Shown here one piece after another: positions 1 to 10,142 of a stretch of DNA of 64,000 nucleotides (position 1 is its first letter; each line of letters opens with the position of its first letter). Below the pieces are notes generated by a model. It worked only from the letters and a program-made list of their open reading frames with translations, was not told the origin of the DNA and ran no database searches. The stretch lies in IMG/VR virus record IMGVR_UViG_3300035182_001152; one strand, given 5' to 3'. A program made the translations under genes and the position numbers. Source of the stretch: a virus. Lineage: Duplodnaviria > Caudoviricetes.

Positions 1-86
1 ACGCTCCAACGGAGACAACTGATGATGGCGTTTCCGCCAAGCAGAAGCGAATGGCCAAGCACGCAGAAATGCAAGCAGCTGAATAA
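1..86 (+). CDS. 3' end of an upstream gene (partial)
   Basis: Frame 3 reads APTETTDDGVSAKQKRMAKHAEMQAAE to TAA at 84-86; identity not recognisable. Confidence 0.4.
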   Translation, partial: APTETTDDGVSAKQKRMAKHAEMQAAE

Positions 87-138
87 ACTGTTGTAAGGTC
101 AACCAAAACAGGTCATAGTGATATGACCTGTTTCCCTT

Positions 139-684
139 ATGCAAATCATCAAACGACAAACCGCTCAACAATCTGGCCTAAACAAGTACTTTACGGGTAA
201 GCCATGCAAGTCCGGACATATATCAGAACGATATGTTCACAGTGGTGTTTGTATTGCTTGCCTACGTAAGAATGTTGATCGGTACCGGGCGAGTCACCGC
301 GAAACTGTGAATCTGCGAACGAGGACTTGGCGAGACCATCACCCGGGATACTATACGGATCGCTATGCTTATGATTCATCTAAGTCCAAAGAATGGACTA
401 AACGATGGAAACAAGCCAACCCAGCTCGTGTGGCGCTAATGCAGGATCGCCGCGGCGCCTTGTTAGCTCGTGCTACTCCTACGTGGGCGGAGGCAGAATT
501 GATCAAGCAGGTATACCGCAAGCGTGATGAACTTAGCAAGGTGTGGAACATAGATCTGACGGTAGACCACATTATACCGATCCAAAGTGATACAGTGTGT
601 GGGTTACATTGCTGGGCAAACCTTCAACTCATAGAAAGAAGCGATAATGGACGAAAACACAACAAATACATTACCGACTGGTAA
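139..684 (+). CDS. HNH homing endonuclease
   Basis: N-terminal YFTGKPCKSGH..ER..SG.C..C Zn motif; C-terminal VDHIIPIQSDTVCGLHCWANLQLI HNH motif. Confidence 0.85.
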   Translation: MQIIKRQTAQQSGLNKYFTGKPCKSGHISERYVHSGVCIACLRKNVDRYRASHRETVNLRTRTWRDHHPGYYTDRYAYDSSKSKEWTKRWKQANPARVALMQDRRGALLARATPTWAEAELIKQVYRKRDELSKVWNIDLTVDHIIPIQSDTVCGLHCWANLQLIERSDNGRKHNKYITDW

Positions 685-1708
685 GCCTCGACCAGCTGAA
701 CAGCTAATCCGTGACAACTTGTTAGTTAAGCATTACGCGGGTAGCCGTGCCTATGGCACTAATTTGCCCACGTCAGATACAGATTTTCGTGGCATCTTTG
801 TCGCTGACCCAATCAATGTGCGGACACCGTTCTATCCAATCACTGAGAAGGTGGACACAAGTGAGGAGGACACAGTAATCTACGAGTTGGCGCAGTTTAT
901 GAAGCTGACGCTGGACTGCAACCCCAACGTGATTGAGACGCTTTGGGTTGATCGTCAAGACATCGTGACTACTTCTCCTGCTTATGAGGTTCTTCGTCAA
1001 AACGCAGGTGCCCTGCTATCAAGCAAAATTGCGTTTACTACGTCTGGATACGCCCTGTCACAACTGAAGCGGATCAAGGGCCACAACAAGTGGATCAACA
1101 ATCCGCAGCCGGAAAAACGTCCTCAGATGATTGACTTCATCTCACTCGTCCACAACTTCACAGGTGCAAAGACGTTCAAGATCGACCTGCGCAATTACCA
1201 AGACAATCACCGCCTGGTTCCATACAGTGGCGATACGTACGGTCTGTACCAAGTAAATGGCTATTCACCGTACAACGCAGAAACGGGTGCACTAAACGCA
1301 GACTATGAAGGTGACTCCAACGCGCTCGGTGTGCCGTTGTTCATCATCAAGTTCAACCGTCAGGTGTACTCTGACGCTGCAGAAACGTGGGAGAACTACT
1401 GGACGTGGAAAAAGAATCGCAATGTCGCGCGTAGTGCGCTCGAAGAGCCATTTGGTTATGACTGTTACACTGATGATACAGAATTTTTGACTAACACGGG
1501 ATGGAAACGGTTCGACGACGTCTCAGAGACAGATACTCTAGCCACGTTTAACCAATTATCGCATAAGATTGAATATCAAGCTCCGACAGAACGAATTGAT
1601 AGTAAGTTCACAGGCAATCTATACCATTTGACAGGGCATCACGTCGACACCCTCGTGACTTCAAATCACAATATGTACGTTCAGGACCTCGTATGGAAGA
1701 AAAACTAG
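647..1708 (+). CDS. Pol-beta-superfamily nucleotidyltransferase, N-part, fused to an N-terminal intein fragment
   Basis: GSRAYGTNLPTSDTDFRG NTase motif; sequence runs to LEEPFGYD and then switches to intein; the usual C-terminal helices are missing. Confidence 0.8.
   Translation: MDENTTNTLPTGKPRPAEQLIRDNLLVKHYAGSRAYGTNLPTSDTDFRGIFVADPINVRTPFYPITEKVDTSEEDTVIYELAQFMKLTLDCNPNVIETLWVDRQDIVTTSPAYEVLRQNAGALLSSKIAFTTSGYALSQLKRIKGHNKWINNPQPEKRPQMIDFISLVHNFTGAKTFKIDLRNYQDNHRLVPYSGDTYGLYQVNGYSPYNAETGALNADYEGDSNALGVPLFIIKFNRQVYSDAAETWENYWTWKKNRNVARSALEEPFGYDCYTDDTEFLTNTGWKRFDDVSETDTLATFNQLSHKIEYQAPTERIDSKFTGNLYHLTGHHVDTLVTSNHNMYVQDLVWKKN
1463..1705 (+). other. Intein N-fragment (81 aa), no C-terminal splicing block
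   Basis: Block A CYTDDTEFLTNTGWK and block B VTSNH, then a stop at 1708. Confidence 0.8.
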
Positions 1709-2220
1709 AGCACGTTCAGCGGCTGCTGAGCCTGTTTGATGACAGGGAGACTCACAAGACAGCGCACAATCGAGAGATTGCGGCTGCATTGAACGATGGA
1801 CTACTAACAGCGCTGTTTGAGCTGCTTGGACTCCCAACCGAGGACGTTGTTTGGGAGGATTTCTTCGTTCTCGACTCCGTGATCGTCGTTGCCGTCCAGA
1901 TAACATACGATACAGCGAAAGAACGCACGGAATTCCTGCGTTTAATTGCGCCTGTAAAGGCTGACAAAGACGTTACGCGAGTGACTCGCTCTGTCAAGTT
2001 TGGCATTCCTCTACTGAACGCGTTTGAGCCGTTGGATCAGATTAAACAACATTTGATCAACCTCGCTCGTGAAACGACCGCTGCTACAGAGGAACCTCCT
2101 GAACTTGTTGGACCACCTAAGCCACCACCCTCTACAAAATTCGACGCAGAGCCGCTGTCCGATGACCAACTAATAGCATTGATGGCCATGCGCCGTATCT
2201 CAAAGGCAACAAAACAATGA
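1693..2220 (+). CDS. hypothetical protein
   Basis: 175-aa ORF, AGGA RBS, coupled to uvsY by an ATGA overlap. Confidence 0.7.
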   Translation: MEEKLEHVQRLLSLFDDRETHKTAHNREIAAALNDGLLTALFELLGLPTEDVVWEDFFVLDSVIVVAVQITYDTAKERTEFLRLIAPVKADKDVTRVTRSVKFGIPLLNAFEPLDQIKQHLINLARETTAATEEPPELVGPPKPPPSTKFDAEPLSDDQLIALMAMRRISKATKQ

Positions 2221-2675
2221 GCAGAATTGCAGACTTGGGAGAAAAGAACATCAACTTACCAAAGCTGATTGGTGAGTATGAAGACGCTCTGTCAACAATC
2301 GACGACAACTTGAAGCTGTCGGGGAAGACCCACGATCAAGCACTCAAAGAGCAAGCAACGTGGCCAATTTACTACAGCCAACGGCGTGCTGAGCTAAAGA
2401 CGCTGATGAAGTACCTTGATGCACAGGTAGCTTCTGTACGCGGGTCGTTCTCACGCCGCTACAACGAAAACTACAGCACGAAGCTTGGTGAGCGCATGAT
2501 GGAGCGTTACATCGACAACGAGGAGGCATACGTCAAGATGTACGAACTGTACCTTGAAGTTGCCGAACTGCACGATAAGTTCGATGCTGCCGTTGACGCT
2601 TTTGACAAGCGGGGTTTCGCATTGCGAGACATCACCGCTGCACGTGTTGCACAGATCCAAAGCGCACTCTTATAA
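2217..2675 (+). CDS. uvsY: UvsY-like recombination mediator
   Basis: Helical 152-aa protein ending KRGFALRDITAAR, directly upstream of uvsW. Confidence 0.65.
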   Translation: MSRIADLGEKNINLPKLIGEYEDALSTIDDNLKLSGKTHDQALKEQATWPIYYSQRRAELKTLMKYLDAQVASVRGSFSRRYNENYSTKLGERMMERYIDNEEAYVKMYELYLEVAELHDKFDAAVDAFDKRGFALRDITAARVAQIQSALL

Positions 2676-2679
2676 CAAC

Positions 2680-4215
2680 ATGACAACAACAAGAAGCGAA
2701 TGCAAAATTCGCCTGCTAGATGAGGTTACAGCGTTTGTCGTCGGTCTGCGAGGAGAGCACCTGGAGGCTCTGTCGGACCGCTACGCCGTCAATGCAGCGA
2801 ACTATTTCTTCAACCCACGGTTCAAACTTGGACAGTGGGATGGTAAGATCCGTTACTTCCACAAGAACGGCAAGACGTACATTTACCTGTTAGATGACAT
2901 CCTGCCACGCCTGGTTAAACTAGGGTACAAAGTAACGATTGAAGACCTTCGCTCGCCAGCACCTCAACCAGAGTTGGCGACTGCTGATATGTTTAAGGAC
3001 GTGCTCCACCCGGATACAGGTGAGCCGATCATCCTGCGCGACTATCAGTACAACAATGTGAACAATCTAATTGAGCACGGTAACGGCTTAATTATTGCAT
3101 CAACTGGTGCGGGTAAGACGCTGTTGTCCGCATGTCTCGTTAACTCATACGGCAAGCTTGGCCTGAAGACGTTAACGATTGTTCCCAACCAGGATTTGAT
3201 CCGCAACACCAAGCAAGACTACATCAATTGCGGTCTCGATACGGGTGAGTATAGCGGCACATCAAAGACGCTCGAACATCAACACATCGTGTCAACGTGG
3301 CAAGCGTTGAAGAACAATCCAAAGATCATCGAACTGTTCCAAGTGATTCTTGTTGACGAGTGTCACGGTGCAAAAGGCAACGTGCTGCAAAAGATCCTAA
3401 CAGATCATGCAGCACGAATTCCGTACCGATTTGGTGTCACGGGCACGCTACCGAAGGATCCATCCGATGTGATGTCGATTAAGGTTGCTCTTGGGCCCGT
3501 TCGTGGAACCGTCACGGCAGCAGAATTGATGGATCGTGGTATTCTGGCACAGCTGCACATTGACGTCCTGCAGTTGGAAGAAGACTTACGCGACGAGTAC
3601 AACAAGTTCTGCGCTGAAGACGTTGTCAACGTTAAGCCACCTACATACACGGCGTTCAAGGACGCATACTTCGGTGATTTTGCAGCGGAAAAGTCGTACC
3701 TGCATCGCAAAAAGGATCGGATTGAGTGGATTGCAGACTTCTTGTGTGCTAAGCGTGACACGGGGAAGGGCAATGTATTGTGCCTCGTTGACAGTATTCC
3801 GTTTGGACGCCAGCTAGCAAACATCATCCCTAATGCAATCTTCGTCAATGGCCAGGATGTCAAGAAGTCTGAAGAGCGCCAGAAGATTTACGACTTGTTC
3901 AAGAACAACGACGATCTCGTTGTGATTGCAACTGTTCACATCGCAGGCACAGGCCTAAACATTCGACGAATCTTCAACCTCGTGATGGTTGACGTGGGCA
4001 AGTCTTTCATCCGTGTGATCCAGGCGATTGGTCGAGGATTACGCACAGCTGAGGACAAGAAGTCTGTGATTGTGACCGACATTTGTGGAGACCTCAAGTA
4101 CAGTAAAAAGCACTTGAAGGAACGGACAAACTACTACGAAGAAGCCCAGTACAAGTACAAAAAACACCAAATCGACTACGTTAAGCAGATGTCCGCTCTT
4201 GACGGGTTCGAATAA
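2680..4215 (+). CDS. uvsW: UvsW-like SF2 DNA helicase
   Basis: LRDYQ, STGAGKT (Walker A), DECH, GVTGT and QAIGRGLR motifs; start adjusted to ATG 2680. Confidence 0.9.
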   Translation: MTTTRSECKIRLLDEVTAFVVGLRGEHLEALSDRYAVNAANYFFNPRFKLGQWDGKIRYFHKNGKTYIYLLDDILPRLVKLGYKVTIEDLRSPAPQPELATADMFKDVLHPDTGEPIILRDYQYNNVNNLIEHGNGLIIASTGAGKTLLSACLVNSYGKLGLKTLTIVPNQDLIRNTKQDYINCGLDTGEYSGTSKTLEHQHIVSTWQALKNNPKIIELFQVILVDECHGAKGNVLQKILTDHAARIPYRFGVTGTLPKDPSDVMSIKVALGPVRGTVTAAELMDRGILAQLHIDVLQLEEDLRDEYNKFCAEDVVNVKPPTYTAFKDAYFGDFAAEKSYLHRKKDRIEWIADFLCAKRDTGKGNVLCLVDSIPFGRQLANIIPNAIFVNGQDVKKSEERQKIYDLFKNNDDLVVIATVHIAGTGLNIRRIFNLVMVDVGKSFIRVIQAIGRGLRTAEDKKSVIVTDICGDLKYSKKHLKERTNYYEEAQYKYKKHQIDYVKQMSALDGFE

Positions 4216-4233
4216 CCAAGGTATACTTACACC

Positions 4234-4722
4234 ATGTTAATCTTCGACGGCAATTCGCAACCAATCATTCTTGACAGCATTCACGGTCCGACAGTAACAG
4301 AGCATATGTGGGTGCTCGACCTTGCAATGCTCGATTTCACTCTAGCGCCCCTGTTGATGCTGGAGGAGGTCGTATGCCCATCCATTCGTGTTCTAGTTCG
4401 TGGGTTTGAGTTCATTCTCCCCGCCAACTGGTCTGTCTTGGTGTACGATCGAGAGTCCGCACAACTCGATGTTGTGGAGCTAGCAGAAACTGCGGGGCGT
4501 GAATTCACAGCGTTTACGTATGGTCCTCAAAAGTCAGCTCCATCACCAGCAATCATCACCGTAACCAACTACTACGTTGAGCACAAAAACGTAGGTCCGT
4601 CGCTGAATAAGCACCAAATGCTGTGTCACCCCATTGGGCCTGACGAGTGGATCTGTGTATCCCCCAGCGATACGTACAATAAGTACCTAAAAGACATCAT
4701 CGTTGGTGACTTAATTGGTTAA
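4234..4722 (+). CDS. hypothetical protein
   Basis: 162-aa ORF packed in the + strand operon. Confidence 0.7.
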   Translation: MLIFDGNSQPIILDSIHGPTVTEHMWVLDLAMLDFTLAPLLMLEEVVCPSIRVLVRGFEFILPANWSVLVYDRESAQLDVVELAETAGREFTAFTYGPQKSAPSPAIITVTNYYVEHKNVGPSLNKHQMLCHPIGPDEWICVSPSDTYNKYLKDIIVGDLIG

Positions 4723-4731
4723 GGAAAGAAC

Positions 4732-5106
4732 ATGGCATCAGATAAACACGTAAGTGTAGCAGAGTTGAAGACATTCATTGACGCAGTAGAGTTTGCGTCA
4801 GATGCAGACAACTGGATCCCAAGTCAGCGCCAATGGGAGCGAATTCGGTCGATGATTGACCGTCTCGAAGATGCTCCCGCACCACCTCCGCCTGCTCGAT
4901 ATGTGCCAGACAATCAACAGATGATGCAACTCCCTCAGCCATCAATGATGCAGGTTCCTCAAGGGGGGATGATGCCCAGTATGATGCAACCACCTCAGAT
5001 GCTGCCTCCAAACGCTCCATTTGCAGCAGGTAACCCAGCAATGCCTGTTCGCACGCCTGATATTGACACAATGGGGAAGCCGTACCAAAGTGCCTTCGCA
5101 GCTTAA
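4732..5106 (+). CDS. hypothetical protein, Pro/Met/Gln-rich C-terminus
   Basis: AAGGA RBS, 124 aa. Confidence 0.7.
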   Translation: MASDKHVSVAELKTFIDAVEFASDADNWIPSQRQWERIRSMIDRLEDAPAPPPPARYVPDNQQMMQLPQPSMMQVPQGGMMPSMMQPPQMLPPNAPFAAGNPAMPVRTPDIDTMGKPYQSAFAA

Positions 5107-5629
5107 CACACAACTGAAAGACCGCATTCTGTGGTTTGATGGCGACTCCTCGTATGAACCGAGGAGTTTGCTGTATGCAATGCGTCAAGCTGACGTCAAT
5201 TTCGTTACGGAATTGAATGAGATGGTTGCGGAATATAACCGCAATGTTGCCGCATCGCAAGAACTGCGGGTCAAAGAATCATGCGGTGAATTGTCGTTTG
5301 ATTGGACGATTCCTGACAAATACAAAACACTAGATGTGGTTGATTATCTGTTTCAAGCGCATCAAATGCTATTTGAGCACGTCAGTCCAACAGAGTTTGA
5401 TCAGCGTGAAAAGCGCCTTGCAGAGGAAGTTGTTCTGTATCAGAAGCTCGGTCTTTTTGACGTTTTGCGGGCCATTATTTGGATCATAAATACGTTGACC
5501 GCTACCAACACCGTCTGGGGTATTGGTAGAGGAAGTAGCGTGTCGTCATACGCGTTGTTTGTGGTAGGTGTTCACGATGTGGACAGTTACGCTTACGATC
5601 TGGACATAGACGACTTTTTGCACGAATAG
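5090..5629 (+). CDS. DnaE (Pol III alpha)-like fragment 1
   Basis: RLAEEVVLYQKLG..WGIGRGSSVSSYALFVVGVHDVD matches the DnaE GRGS region; probable GTG start at 5090. Confidence 0.75.
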   Translation: MPSQLNTQLKDRILWFDGDSSYEPRSLLYAMRQADVNFVTELNEMVAEYNRNVAASQELRVKESCGELSFDWTIPDKYKTLDVVDYLFQAHQMLFEHVSPTEFDQREKRLAEEVVLYQKLGLFDVLRAIIWIINTLTATNTVWGIGRGSSVSSYALFVVGVHDVDSYAYDLDIDDFLHE

Positions 5630-5639
5630 GACACCATCT

Positions 5640-5870
5640 ATGTCAAACGCAGTTAAGAGTGCTCGTGGTCAACTTGTTGATTTTGATCACTTGAAGATCA
5701 AGCAACAACTAGCCACAGCTCCAAAGCCAACCAATGTTAAGGCTCGTGAAGACTTCATCGACCAAAAATTCAAGCGTCGGTTGAAGAAGATCAGTCGTAC
5801 CATTGTTGACACCGCCGGTCCGGGTGACGACTTTGTCGACGAGGACGAAACACCAGAAGAAAGCCTATAA
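5640..5870 (+). CDS. hypothetical protein
   Basis: 76-aa ORF with AGGA RBS. Confidence 0.6.
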   Translation: MSNAVKSARGQLVDFDHLKIKQQLATAPKPTNVKAREDFIDQKFKRRLKKISRTIVDTAGPGDDFVDEDETPEESL

Positions 5871-5874
5871 CCAT

Positions 5875-6453
5875 ATGAACCTCACTGCAATCAATAACGT
5901 AATCATATTCAAATTCGTAGACGCTGTAAATGCCAAGGGCGAGTTCGAAAAAGCCGCCACTGAGTCAGGGATCATCCTGAAGGGTAGTGTAGACGACAGC
6001 GCAAAGTCCCCTCGTTGGGCAACTGTGACACACGTTGGTCCAGATTGCAAGGTTAATGTGGGGGATCAGATTCTGATCCCCAACCTTCGCTGGACAAATG
6101 GCTTCAAGGTCGACGGTGTGTATCACTGGAAGACGGACCAAACGCAAATCGCGGCTGTCCGCTCTGCGGAAACAGGTAAACTGAAGGCGGCAAATGACTA
6201 TGTGGTGTTCGTTAAGAACAAGCCATCATCTTCATTCACCAGCCAATCCGGCCTGTTGATCATGTCAGCCCCGACAACAGACACCCCGAGCGGTCGTGCT
6301 CTGTCAATCGGCCCTGATGCGGATCCGGAATTGGCTGATTCCACCATCTACTACAGCGACATCAACTTCACGAACGACTTTACTCACGGGTCTGTTTCCT
6401 TGGCTTTCGTCAAGGAAGAAGAAATCTTCGTGTACGTTCCTGCTGGAGAATAA
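5875..6453 (+). CDS. groES: co-chaperonin GroES-like protein with two tandem domains
   Basis: Domain 1 LTAINNVIIF..TESGIIL..VTHVGP..VGDQIL; domain 2 LKAANDYVVF..SQSGLLI..LSIGP. Confidence 0.7.
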   Translation: MNLTAINNVIIFKFVDAVNAKGEFEKAATESGIILKGSVDDSAKSPRWATVTHVGPDCKVNVGDQILIPNLRWTNGFKVDGVYHWKTDQTQIAAVRSAETGKLKAANDYVVFVKNKPSSSFTSQSGLLIMSAPTTDTPSGRALSIGPDADPELADSTIYYSDINFTNDFTHGSVSLAFVKEEEIFVYVPAGE

Positions 6454-6455
6454 TC

Positions 6456-7835
6456 ATGTTTTTCATCGGCTTGCTGATGCTGTCAACGACAGCAATCGCA
6501 TTCGCTGCTGCATACTTTAGCGTCTATGGCCTAGCAAACACCTTTGCCGGTGTTTTCTGGTCTGTAGTCGTCATGGGCGCATCTTTGGAGGCCGGCAAGC
6601 TGGTCGCCGCCTCATACCTGTACCGCTATTGGTCAACTACCAACGTTGTCCTGCGTACCTACCTGATGGCGGGGGTGGCGGCACTAATGATCTTGACGTC
6701 AACGGGTATCTTTGGTTATCTGTCGACTGGCTATCAACAGGATGTGTTGCCCCTGCAGCAGAAAACTGAACAGATCAAACTCCTCGAGGATGATCGTACC
6801 CGGTCTCTTGCTCGGAAGACTCAGATCGATACACTAATTGCCGGTGGACCTTCACTGACAAACCTAAACCGTGCCAACGGTACGATCGACCCAAACGCAG
6901 CCCGCACCCTCCGCGAAACAACGAAGGCTCGCGCATCGATGGTCGCTCAGTACAAGGATGAACAGGTGCAAGTAACGAAGCACATCGCTGATTTGGACAC
7001 TCAACTGCTGTCCCTTAAGCAGGATGTACTCAAGGTACAGGCACACGTTGGCCCAATCATCTACATTGCGCAAGCCTTTGGTCTACCTGCAGACGACGCA
7101 ACGAAGTACCTGATCTTCATCATTATCTTCGCATTCGACCCGATGGCCGTCGCAATGACCCTCGCAACGAACAATGCACTGCGTCTGCGCAAGGAAGAGA
7201 AGGACTCAAAGGAGGCTGGTGCGATCACACCGCCAGCTGCTGAGCCTGAGCTACCTACACCGATCCCCGAAGAGGTCCAACCTGAACCAGCGCCAGTAGT
7301 TGATGAAGTGCAGCCAGCGCCAGTAGCGGAAGAGGTGCAACCACTTGCAGACGCCATTGGTCCTAACCCAAATGAGGTGCTGTATGATTGGGTTCAAAAT
7401 CATGGTACAGCAGAGCCGTCCGCAGATGAGATTGTTGACGACTGGGTCCGAAATCACCCAAGGTACGATCCGGCCGTACACGAAAGTGCACAAGAACAGC
7501 CAGAAGTAACTGTTTCTGAGCCTGCTGTACATGAAATTGAGCAACCAGAGCCAGAAGTAACTGTTTCTGAGCCAGAGGCAAAAGCGGAAGAAGCTCATGA
7601 GCCTGAGCCGGCACCCGTGCAACCTGTGATCAGCCAGGGCCGTCGCTTCCGTCCTGCGCACGATCGCTGGTCGGACATGGATCACTCTGGTACGAAAATG
7701 CGAGAGCTGATCAATCACCACAAGTACCTGAAGGCTAAGCAAGATAACGGTGACACGCTGTCCGCTGAGGAAGCCTGGGAACTAAATGCAATCGAAGCTG
7801 TGCTTCGCAAGCACGGGGTTGACATGTATCTTTGA
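6456..7835 (+). CDS. membrane protein with coiled coil and acidic Pro-rich tail
   Basis: Three N-terminal hydrophobic segments (LEAGKLVAASYL, ILTSTGIFGYLS), a further TM (IIIFAFDPMAV); 23-nt direct repeat at 7500-7522 and 7551-7573. Confidence 0.75.
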   Translation: MFFIGLLMLSTTAIAFAAAYFSVYGLANTFAGVFWSVVVMGASLEAGKLVAASYLYRYWSTTNVVLRTYLMAGVAALMILTSTGIFGYLSTGYQQDVLPLQQKTEQIKLLEDDRTRSLARKTQIDTLIAGGPSLTNLNRANGTIDPNAARTLRETTKARASMVAQYKDEQVQVTKHIADLDTQLLSLKQDVLKVQAHVGPIIYIAQAFGLPADDATKYLIFIIIFAFDPMAVAMTLATNNALRLRKEEKDSKEAGAITPPAAEPELPTPIPEEVQPEPAPVVDEVQPAPVAEEVQPLADAIGPNPNEVLYDWVQNHGTAEPSADEIVDDWVRNHPRYDPAVHESAQEQPEVTVSEPAVHEIEQPEPEVTVSEPEAKAEEAHEPEPAPVQPVISQGRRFRPAHDRWSDMDHSGTKMRELINHHKYLKAKQDNGDTLSAEEAWELNAIEAVLRKHGVDMYL

Positions 7836-7896
7836 CCGTTGAAGTTCTCCTCGGTAATCTGTATAGTTTGAATACAAGCCGAGGAGAATAACGACA

Positions 7897-8832
7897 ATGG
7901 CAGCACAAAATAACCACTCGCTCTGGGTGGAAAAATACCGTCCTCAAACGGTTGATCAGTACGTTTTCCATGACCCACGCCAGAAGAGCGCTGTAGAGAA
8001 CATGATCAAGGAAAAGTCAATCCCTCAACTGCTGCTCTCGGGCGTACAGGGCAGCGGAAAGACGACGCTAGCGCAGATTCTCATCCGCGCAATGGGCCTT
8101 GATGACATGGACGTACTGACGATCAATGCCTCCGACGAGCGTGGCATTGATACATTCCGCAATACGATCAAGAACTTCGCCCTCTCAATGGCGATGGGTC
8201 GCTTCAAGATCATCCACCTTGAAGAAGCGGACAAGCTAACACCTGATGCACAGGCAGCTCTCAAGCGATTCATGGAAGAAACGAGCGAATTTGTTCGCTT
8301 CATTCTGACATGCAATAATGTCAGCAAGGTGATCGCTCCAATTCGGTCTCGGTGCCAGGAGTACTACTTCCGTGGCGGCGACGTCAATGACGTAACGGAA
8401 TATGCACTTCGCGTTCTGTGTGCTGAAAAGGTCAAGTTTGACCTCGATCTACTTGACAAGTATGTAGCGAATGGCTATCCTGATGTTCGCAAGATCATCA
8501 ACCTCCTCCAACAGAACACGATCAACGGTGAGTTGCAGCCTCCTGTATCCAGCGGTGAAACTGGCGACTACAAGTTCCAGCTACTCGACTCGCTGGAGGC
8601 AGACAAGTGGGTTGAAGCACGGAAGCTCGTGTGCGCAACGGTAACGTCGGATGAGTGGGAAGGTGTGTATCGATTCTTGTACGAGAACCTACATCGCGCA
8701 CCATCGTTCTCAAAGAAGGACAAGTGGGAAGAGGCGATCATCATCGTCGCTGAACACCTATACAAAAACACGATTGTTGCTGACCCTGAGATCAATGCAG
8801 CAGCGATGTTCATTCGCCTGGGTCAGATCTGA
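7897..8832 (+). CDS. clamp loader AAA+ subunit (RFC/gp44-like)
   Basis: WVEKYRP, GVQGSGKTT, INASDERGID, LEEADKLT, IRSRC. Confidence 0.92.
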   Translation: MAAQNNHSLWVEKYRPQTVDQYVFHDPRQKSAVENMIKEKSIPQLLLSGVQGSGKTTLAQILIRAMGLDDMDVLTINASDERGIDTFRNTIKNFALSMAMGRFKIIHLEEADKLTPDAQAALKRFMEETSEFVRFILTCNNVSKVIAPIRSRCQEYYFRGGDVNDVTEYALRVLCAEKVKFDLDLLDKYVANGYPDVRKIINLLQQNTINGELQPPVSSGETGDYKFQLLDSLEADKWVEARKLVCATVTSDEWEGVYRFLYENLHRAPSFSKKDKWEEAIIIVAEHLYKNTIVADPEINAAAMFIRLGQI

Positions 8833-8863
8833 CTCTGCGCCAACAGTTAAACAAGGAGACAAC

Positions 8864-9232
8864 ATGACCACAGATCTATCAAACTTTGGGATTTCAACGC
8901 AGGGCGCACTGTCAGCGTCCGACGCGATCGTGGGCGCCAAGCTTTACACAGTTGCCCCGTCACCGTTCGGCGTAGTTGCTACGCCGAATAGCTTCGACCC
9001 CGTGCATCTACTACAACGGATTGATGCATTGGAGACTCGACTCCGAGCAGTAGAGGGCAGGTATGACTCAGGTCAGGATGACCCCAGCTACTTCACAAAG
9101 TCATTCAACACAACCAAGCAAATCACAGAAGATTACACCTCTGGCTTTAGCTCCGGTCGCTCCTCTTTAGTCGAGCACCTACCAAACGATCATGTGTATG
9201 CATACGATCAAGCAATGAAGGTGGTGAAGTAA
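8864..9232 (+). CDS. hypothetical protein
   Basis: AAGGAG RBS, ATG 8864. Confidence 0.6.
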   Translation: MTTDLSNFGISTQGALSASDAIVGAKLYTVAPSPFGVVATPNSFDPVHLLQRIDALETRLRAVEGRYDSGQDDPSYFTKSFNTTKQITEDYTSGFSSGRSSLVEHLPNDHVYAYDQAMKVVK

Positions 9233-9234
9233 TA

Positions 9235-9786
9235 ATGAAAATGTGTCCCTCATGCACGAAGTTATTAGCAGTGGACCTGTTTGCTAGGGATAAAACCCGC
9301 GGTGATGGTCTTGCCCGTAGCTGCAAAGCGTGCACGAAGACATATCGTCAGAAGTGGCTTGCCACAAAGAATGAGACCCAACGAAGCCAAATGCGGTTGG
9401 ATATCAAGCGCTGGGGATTGGAAAACCCAGCCCAGAAGTTGTTGCTTGATCGCCAGTATAGAAAGACTCAGCGTTACAAAAGAACTCAGAGTGAGTACCT
9501 TAAACGTTGGAGACCAAGTAATAAGCACATAGTTAATGCTGCTCATGCACGACGCCGAGCTCAGCAACTACGGGCAATTCCCATCTGGTTTGAAGCAGAT
9601 CAGGTGAAAGAAGTTTACAACCAAGCTAATAGACTATCTAAGCTGTTCGGCAAACGCTTCCACGTAGATCATATAATTCCGTTGATGAATCCCACGGTAT
9701 GTGGACTTCATTGTTGGCATAATCTTCAAGTGCTAGATGCCCAACTTAATTTGAACAAAACCAATTCATACCAACACGATTGGTGA
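9235..9786 (+). CDS. HNH homing endonuclease
   Basis: N-terminal CPSC..DGL..CKAC; C-terminal FHVDHIIPLMNPTVCGLHCWHNLQVL. Confidence 0.85.
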   Translation: MKMCPSCTKLLAVDLFARDKTRGDGLARSCKACTKTYRQKWLATKNETQRSQMRLDIKRWGLENPAQKLLLDRQYRKTQRYKRTQSEYLKRWRPSNKHIVNAAHARRRAQQLRAIPIWFEADQVKEVYNQANRLSKLFGKRFHVDHIIPLMNPTVCGLHCWHNLQVLDAQLNLNKTNSYQHDW

Positions 9787-10142
9787 AGGAGAATATCATA
9801 GCTAGAAGAAAAAAGCCTGAGGGCGAAACTCCCGACGAAGCCGTCGTACGACACCGGCTTGAGCAGATTGCTGACAACGCAACGCGTAGTGAAAAGGTGT
9901 CCTGGGACCGCAAGATGGATAACATGGTTTCGCTGATCGCGAAACTGCGACCAATCGAAGATCAGACCCTCGATCTGATGGCACAGAAGGTTCCCATTCT
10001 CGATGAGATTGAGATCCTTCGACGTGAGATGGTTCGCGAATGCGTCCATCCATACACACACCTCGTCGATCACGAAGGTACGGTGAAGTGCAACTTCTGT
10101 TCCAAACGTTTTGGACTTGTAAATGGTGGAACGCAAACTTGA
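9780..10142 (+). CDS. hypothetical protein, possible Zn ribbon
   Basis: ECVHPYTH..KCNFC; overlaps both neighbours. Confidence 0.6.
   Translation: MVKENIIARRKKPEGETPDEAVVRHRLEQIADNATRSEKVSWDRKMDNMVSLIAKLRPIEDQTLDLMAQKVPILDEIEILRREMVRECVHPYTHLVDHEGTVKCNFCSKRFGLVNGGTQT

Follow-up and report, generated by a model that had tools for sequence, protein, structure and literature searches.

ORF 647-1708 of the window, the whole stretch of 64,000 nucleotides of phage DNA that was analyzed, very probably encodes an RlaP-type nucleotidyltransferase (NTase) scarred by a deletion that removed most of an intein and nearly the whole of the C-extein. The ancestor of this T4-like phage would have possessed an RlaP-type NTase harboring a contiguous intein of about 350 residues, of the homing endonuclease type, at the site GYD/TKHAMH. 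One deletion, in frame and about 1.09 kb long, probably occurred at the short microhomology AC GTT C and would have eliminated the intein from residue 74 to about residue 352 together with the first 83 or so residues of the C-extein. What remains is an ORF consisting of the N-extein (272 residues), 73 residues of the intein, and the last eight residues of the NTase, which has retained its native stop codon and still overlaps the downstream gene.

Composition of the open reading frame

ORF 647-1708, located on the + strand, encodes 353 residues. Residues 28-143 match the Pfam family RlaP (PF10127), described in Pfam as 'RNA repair pathway DNA polymerase beta family', with a score of 44.1 bits (cut-off of 23), and the G-S and D-x-D motifs of the Pol-beta NTase domain are present in the N-terminal part. 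The N-extein shares 45-76% identity with 60 related phage NTases. It is immediately followed by the first residue of an intein, Cys1, encoded by nucleotides 1463-1465 directly after the GYD motif, which ends at nucleotide 1462. Block A (CYTDDTEFLT..GWK) aligns with the corresponding block of 20 contiguous inteins, and block B (T66-S-N-H69) aligns with the T[SA]NH motif of the relatives and is followed by NMYV. A profile built from the 20 contiguous inteins, which originate from NTases of the same family, matched the ORF with an E value of 1.3e-40, over profile positions 1-76 only. This match is far beyond chance. Blocks F and G, the terminal Asn, and the Cys, Ser, or Thr at position +1 were absent from the ORF, as assessed with the intein and IntC profiles.

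A first-pass annotation of the window, made from the nucleotide sequence alone, had proposed that NTase homology ends at ..LEEPFGYD and is followed by Cys1 at position 1463 and by blocks A and B. The profile and the relatives confirm this organization. The same annotation described an intein N-fragment of 81 residues; its assignment to an intein holds, but only 73 residues (1463-1681) belong to the intein, the last eight (1682-1705) being the native C-terminus of the NTase (Table 1).

Table 1. Features of ORF 647-1708 and of the gene located downstream.
Feature	Position	Strand	Basis
N-extein, RlaP-type Pol-beta NTase, residues 1-272, ending ..EEPFGYD	647..1462	+	PF10127 match, relatives
Intein remnant, residues 1-73 of an intein of about 350 aa, LAGLIDADG type	1463..1681	+	84% identity to P0127, profile match
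Deletion junction (AC GTT C); break anywhere within these bases	1677..1682	+	Flanks of relatives
Last 8 codons of the NTase C-extein (QDLVWKKN) and native stop (1706-1708)	1682..1708	+	C-termini of relatives
Next gene, 175 aa	1693..2220	+	RBS AGGA 1683-1686 and ATG inside NTase tail, as in relatives

The tblastn alignments obtained with phages Hena1 and KLEP7 extend to query residue 350 approximately, as would be expected if the stub were merely a divergent C-terminal domain. This interpretation was rejected, the alignment over the stub being spurious: Hena1 and KLEP7 encode intact NTases whose length is similar, and the stub matches inteins with E values of 1e-12 to 1e-40.

Intact NTases and contiguous inteins in related phages

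Megablast of positions 1-6000 of the window against phage records did not reveal any match. Related loci (n = 63) were obtained by tblastn of phage records and by a scan of viral contigs. The NTase is uninterrupted in about 50 of these 63 loci, GYD being directly followed by TKHAMHLVRLLRMG.., the beginning (TKHAMH) of a C-terminal part of about 90 residues. A contiguous intein is present at the same site in the NTases of Pectobacterium phage DU_PP_I (ATS93585.1, 700 aa) and of locus L005 (695 aa), and in 19 further proteins (678-758 aa). These inteins comprise 341-368 residues with the layout GYD/C..[GA]N/[TSC]KH, in which the first residue is Cys, the last two are [GA]N (GN in most inteins), and the following residue is T, S, or C. 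Their middle part displays a weak match to LAGLIDADG_3, below the Pfam cut-off.

Over intein residues 1-73, the stub is up to 84% identical to the inteins of metagenomic alleles, a value reached with P0127. Its identity to the intein of DU_PP_I is 35%. For proteins P0127 to P0145, the N-terminal part of the intein is up to 84% identical to the window, whereas the N-extein is only 47-70% identical. The intein N-parts are therefore more alike than the N-exteins that carry them, as expected of a homing element moving horizontally between divergent alleles.

Anatomy of the scar

In 19 of 19 close inteins, R.[YFH]SR..W.F.RAAEL comes after the motif ..TSNHNM[YF][VI] and precedes the endonuclease domain. 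In the window, the sequence after ..TSNHNMYV, which ends with intein residue 73 (nucleotides 1679-1681), reads QDLVWKKN and then a stop codon. Both intact and intein-bearing relatives end with ..[VI]QD[LMSA][VIM]W and one to four additional residues, as exemplified by the C-termini of P0127 (..LNVQDMMWTKN), P0141 (..VQDLVWNK), and the phage Hena1 protein (..IQDLVWHNR), each followed by the stop codon. The tail of the ORF is therefore the native C-terminus of the extein, which fixes both ends of the deletion. Since intein homology stops at residue 73 and is followed by the native NTase tail, stop codon, and gene overlap, the locus was modified by one in-frame deletion. The locus thus lacks, in frame, the intein beyond residue 73 (up to about residue 352) and the C-extein up to about residue 83. 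With P0127 as the reference, the deletion amounts to about 362 codons (about 1.09 kb); this size and the microhomology described below are derived from relatives that are 70-84% identical rather than from the direct parent allele.

The DNA sequence of the junction reads TAC GTT CAG in the window. In the closest relative, L193, the left flank reads TAT GTC/CGT and the right flank AAC GTA/CAG. The similarity of these flanks makes it plausible that the deletion took place at a microhomology a few bases long, and AC GTT C was probably shared by both parental flanks, as judged from relatives rather than from the direct parent.

The position of the downstream gene is also conserved. Its AGGA (1683-1686) and ATG (1693) lie inside the last codons of the ORF, as had been read in the first-pass annotation. 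The out-of-frame overlap between the NTase tail and the next gene, together with a homologous start, is also found in L006 and L008, and a homologue of the downstream gene follows the NTase in L005, L008, L068, and L193. The first-pass annotation had offered a deletion scar, or truncated allele, as one of two explanations for the ORF. The contiguous inteins of the relatives and the native C-terminal tail support this explanation.

Authenticity of the junction

Metagenome assembly might have generated the junction artificially, if an allele with the full-length intein or an intact NTase had been collapsed or chimerically joined. Contigs containing the locus were compared between assemblies. An identical protein of 353 residues was encoded by 3-4 contigs originating from the JGI assembly and from Logan assemblies, the longest of which comprised 206,473 nucleotides. 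The comparison was performed at the contig level; the Logan contigs came from four runs, each belonging to a different study, and two of these runs may represent the source samples. In two runs, the segment between position 1387 and position 2400, containing both the GYD/C junction and the deletion junction, lay on a single contig (of 16.9 kb and 30.5 kb) that did not differ from the window. In a third run, from another study, a contig of 161 nucleotides bridged positions 1650-1810. The segment 1670-1700, singled out in the first-pass annotation for a check of reads, is as written in the window in these contigs and is bridged by independently assembled contigs of two to four runs. No RNA sequencing run was present among the listed runs containing the stretch.

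The assembly graph contained a single branch, at positions 1382-1424, located at a conserved NTase word and seen in three runs. The 30-mer of the loose end was found in L006, L007, and L008. Phages of this type encode an intein-free NTase that is 76% identical to that of the window. The branch is therefore accounted for by a co-occurring related phage with an intact NTase, indicating that intact and scarred alleles share the same habitat. The presence of such a phage in the same samples is what an assembly artefact would require, but the branch is located upstream of the intein, single contigs of two runs span both junctions, and the JGI and Logan assemblies agree on the protein. An artefact is accordingly exceedingly improbable.

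Search for a partner and assessment of a split intein

The other explanation proposed in the first-pass annotation was a new host gene for a natural split intein. In such a system, the ORF would provide the N-extein and IntN, and a separate gene encoding IntC and the C-extein would restore the NTase by trans-splicing. Cys1 and both blocks, A and B (the latter reading TSNH), are indeed intact, and the N-extein has retained all 69 conserved positions (see below). To search for a partner, about 130 kb of contiguous genome, out of a total of about 206 kb, was joined by exact-protein look-ups, comprising 57 kb upstream from the window, the window itself, and 9.6 kb downstream. Six-frame scans of these 130 kb with profiles of IntC (60 aa), of the C-extein, and of the whole intein detected nothing better than E = 0.14. 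Positive controls (L005, L063, L068, L070, and L072) were detected with E values of 1e-20 to 1e-171. The absence of an ORF combining IntC and C-extein from the window, which had already been noticed, was thereby confirmed for the entire 64 kb.

A database search with IntC and the C-extein was restricted to proteins of 74-238 residues, and 120 of 145 proteins were listed. Among these 120 proteins, none had a longest contig of 206,473 nucleotides, the value recorded for P0001, the protein of the window. Four listed candidates were located on contigs exceeding 206,473 nucleotides. Three of them (P0045, P0093, and P0097) were NTase C-halves devoid of an intein C-part, and the fourth, P0121, was a bacterial NTase encoded by a contig of 4.6 Mb.

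The stub itself provides an independent argument against the existence of a partner. It stops four residues past the His of block B, and about 25 residues (..SR..W.F.RAAEL) that are conserved in all 19 relatives are absent. As judged from this alignment, the N-lobe is incomplete, unlike that of the N-fragment of a natural split intein. Natural IntN pieces, such as those of Npu DnaE (102 aa) and gp41-1 (88 aa), extend 16-30 residues past block B. In addition, the last eight residues of the extein have been left behind in the ORF, so that a relocated C-extein would lack them.

These observations do not support a split-intein gene with a distant partner, considering the incomplete N-lobe, the extein's own C-terminus at the end of the ORF, and the failure to find IntC or C-extein in the 130 kb of the 206-kb genome that were scanned or to find, among the 120 listed candidate proteins, one tied to the 206-kb contig. 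Moreover, the relatives contain contiguous inteins at exactly the same site, an observation that the first-pass annotation had itself regarded as incompatible with a split intein. We consider trans-splicing with a separate partner to be extremely unlikely.

Predicted consequences of the deletion for the protein

An alignment of 46 intact relatives contained 48 invariant columns, including 15 in the C-extein (K260, H261, H264, R267, L268, E274, R285, P286, D287, A288, L291, I294, R295, G297, and L325). The ORF of the window lacks 14 of these 15 columns, corresponding to loss of the K-H..H..R-L, R-P-D-A, and I-R.G motifs of the C-terminal helical domain. In contrast to the C-terminal part, all 33 invariant and all 36 nearly invariant columns of the N-terminal part (69 in total) have been kept.

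In the AlphaFold model of an intact relative (pLDDT of 91.9), the C-extein forms four helices comprising residues 259-278, 288-295, 301-322, and 331-346. Of these, the ORF of the window has kept only the end of the fourth helix. Searching the PDB with the sequence of an intact relative NTase gave no match, and Foldseek comparison of the model of an intact relative with the PDB gave only weak matches to Pol-beta NTases (kanamycin NTase, HalB, and MNT). An RlaP entry was not among these matches, the copy of the PDB used for this comparison containing none. In the crystal structure of PfRlaP, one wall of the substrate cleft is made up of the C-terminal helical domain and the last helix, which also clamp the two domains to each other (Carruthers, Fatma & Huang, PMC12776372). 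Because this wall of the cleft is missing, the NTase activity has likely been lost, as predicted from the missing residues and helices. The product cannot splice either, since it has lost blocks F and G, part of the N-lobe, the terminal Asn, and the nucleophile at position +1.

The conserved columns of the N-terminal part being all intact, the deletion is probably recent. The same intactness would fit equally well with continued selection on the N-terminal part. According to another explanation, the deletion generated a useful allele, in which the truncated NTase and its stub would retain some activity or have acquired a new one, or in which the in-frame tail would be kept only for translational coupling with the downstream gene. 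The absence of any change in the 69 conserved N-terminal columns is in agreement with this explanation, as is the fact that the deletion is in frame and left the downstream ribosome binding site and ATG and the native stop codon untouched. However, an in-frame outcome is expected by chance in one case out of three, and 14 of the 15 invariant residues of the C-terminal part are gone, including those of the K-H..H..R-L and R-P-D-A motifs. Selection cannot be measured because a single sequence variant is known (single-member cluster). Maintenance of a useful deletion allele is therefore very unlikely.

Together, these data indicate that the ORF is most likely a young and inactive gene remnant rather than one half of a trans-splicing pair. 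There is only a slight chance that the ORF is not dead, owing either to a partner located in the genome outside the 130 kb that were scanned, in which case the 73-residue stub would be an unusually short natural IntN, or to a truncated NTase domain functional on its own.

Neighboring genes and other interrupted alleles

The phage is T4-like, with the gene order gp32, UvsX, NTase, and UvsW, and with T4-type portal, capsid, sheath, and baseplate genes. A 181-residue ORF (139-684, + strand) is located between the UvsX and NTase genes and overlaps the start of the latter. It displays a weak HNH match (E = 3.9e-4), just under the Pfam cut-off. There is no gene at this place in the relatives L008, L068, and L070, and ORF 139-684 therefore looks like a free-standing homing endonuclease gene inserted beside the scarred gene. 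In L070, the UvsW-type helicase (7444-10023) comprises 859 residues versus about 510 in the window and in L008. This helicase is probably intein-bearing because it is larger and displays faint Hom_end and LAGLIDADG hits.

The NTase gene of several relatives is also decayed or invaded. The syntenic phage L070 harbors the reciprocal deletion: its NTase ORF (6001-6603; P0007, 200 aa) consists of about 47 residues of the N-extein, about 50 C-terminal residues of the intein (..HGN), and the whole C-extein. In L072 (483-2728), an intein-bearing NTase is broken within the endonuclease domain, resulting in adjacent ORFs of 571 and 142 residues. The intein of P0146 (427 aa) is also broken within the endonuclease domain, the protein ending after 155 intein residues. 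The breaks in L072 and P0146 may be due to sequencing errors, decay, or adjacent split inteins.

Other alleles are interrupted by genes. In L068 (1771-3759), and also in L069, a gene encoding a TnsA-like or endonuclease-I-like protein of 251 residues interrupts the NTase, leaving ORFs of 269 and 136 residues. This nuclease gene is inserted about 18 residues before GYD, and both halves contain replacement sequence at the point of interruption. Such NTase C-halves account for many database clusters of about 135 residues (e.g. P0015, P0021, P0027, P0033, and P0044). The NTase of L063 (10001-11800) is interrupted near residue 140 by a homing endonuclease gene of the GIY-YIG type, and NTase C-halves of 222-238 residues are common in the database. 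One allele, P0147 (599 aa), combines a C-half resulting from an upstream split with a contiguous intein.

Discussion

RlaP enzymes add one or two nucleotides to the 3' ends of RNAs and have been linked to RNA repair; NrdC.11 of phage T4 is a member of this family (PMC12776372). The window ORF resembles the archetypal enzymes (PfRlaP, PaRlaP, and T4 NrdC.11) by its Pol-beta NTase domain but is devoid of the conserved C-terminal helices of the cleft. NTases of this type (IPR018775) have been reported to be intein hosts in actinobacteriophages, including a case of adjacent ORFs, referred to as 'split', in phage Zeenon (bioRxiv 10.1101/2025.01.02.630785). Thus, the host gene (PF10127/IPR018775) is not new, contrary to the initial suggestion.

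The ORF belongs to a known intein lineage, of which it represents a decayed member; this is ordinary biology. It shares with the contiguous inteins of phage PF10127 NTases the host family, the insertion site GYD/[TSC]KHAMH, and the intein lineage. It differs from these inteins since it has kept only 73 of about 350 residues, the endonuclease domain, blocks F and G, the terminal Asn, and about 83 residues of the C-extein having been deleted.

The gp41-1, NrdJ-1, and IMPDH-1 natural split inteins are said to have been described by Dassa and colleagues in 2009. As in natural split inteins, including those of cyanobacterial DnaE, gp41-1, NrdJ-1, IMPDH-1, and Zeenon, the ORF ends in the N-terminal part of an intein with Cys1 and block B. 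Unlike them, it possesses an incomplete N-lobe and the tail of its own extein, and no partner was found in the regions and proteins searched. L072 and the Zeenon type comprise two adjacent ORFs with a stop within the endonuclease domain, whereas sequence is missing in the window.

According to the homing cycle, as summarized in bioRxiv 10.1101/2025.01.02.630785 (citing Goddard & Burt 1999; Gogarten & Hilario 2006), a selfish element that has become fixed is subsequently degraded and enters a phase of loss. The ORF fits this loss phase, with the difference that the loss was not precise and most of the C-extein disappeared as well, so that the host gene was lost rather than restored. P0007 in L070 is the reciprocal case of imprecise intein loss, in which most of the N-extein was lost.

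The analysis of ORF 647-1708 provides a correction, since an apparent orphan N-intein that could be mistaken for a new natural split intein, a sought-after tool for protein engineering, is in all likelihood the remnant of a deletion. It also provides a small and clean example of imprecise intein loss destroying the host gene. Together with the mobile-element insertions detected in the relatives, the scar points to an RNA-repair-type NTase that is much invaded, and dispensable, in T4-like environmental phages.
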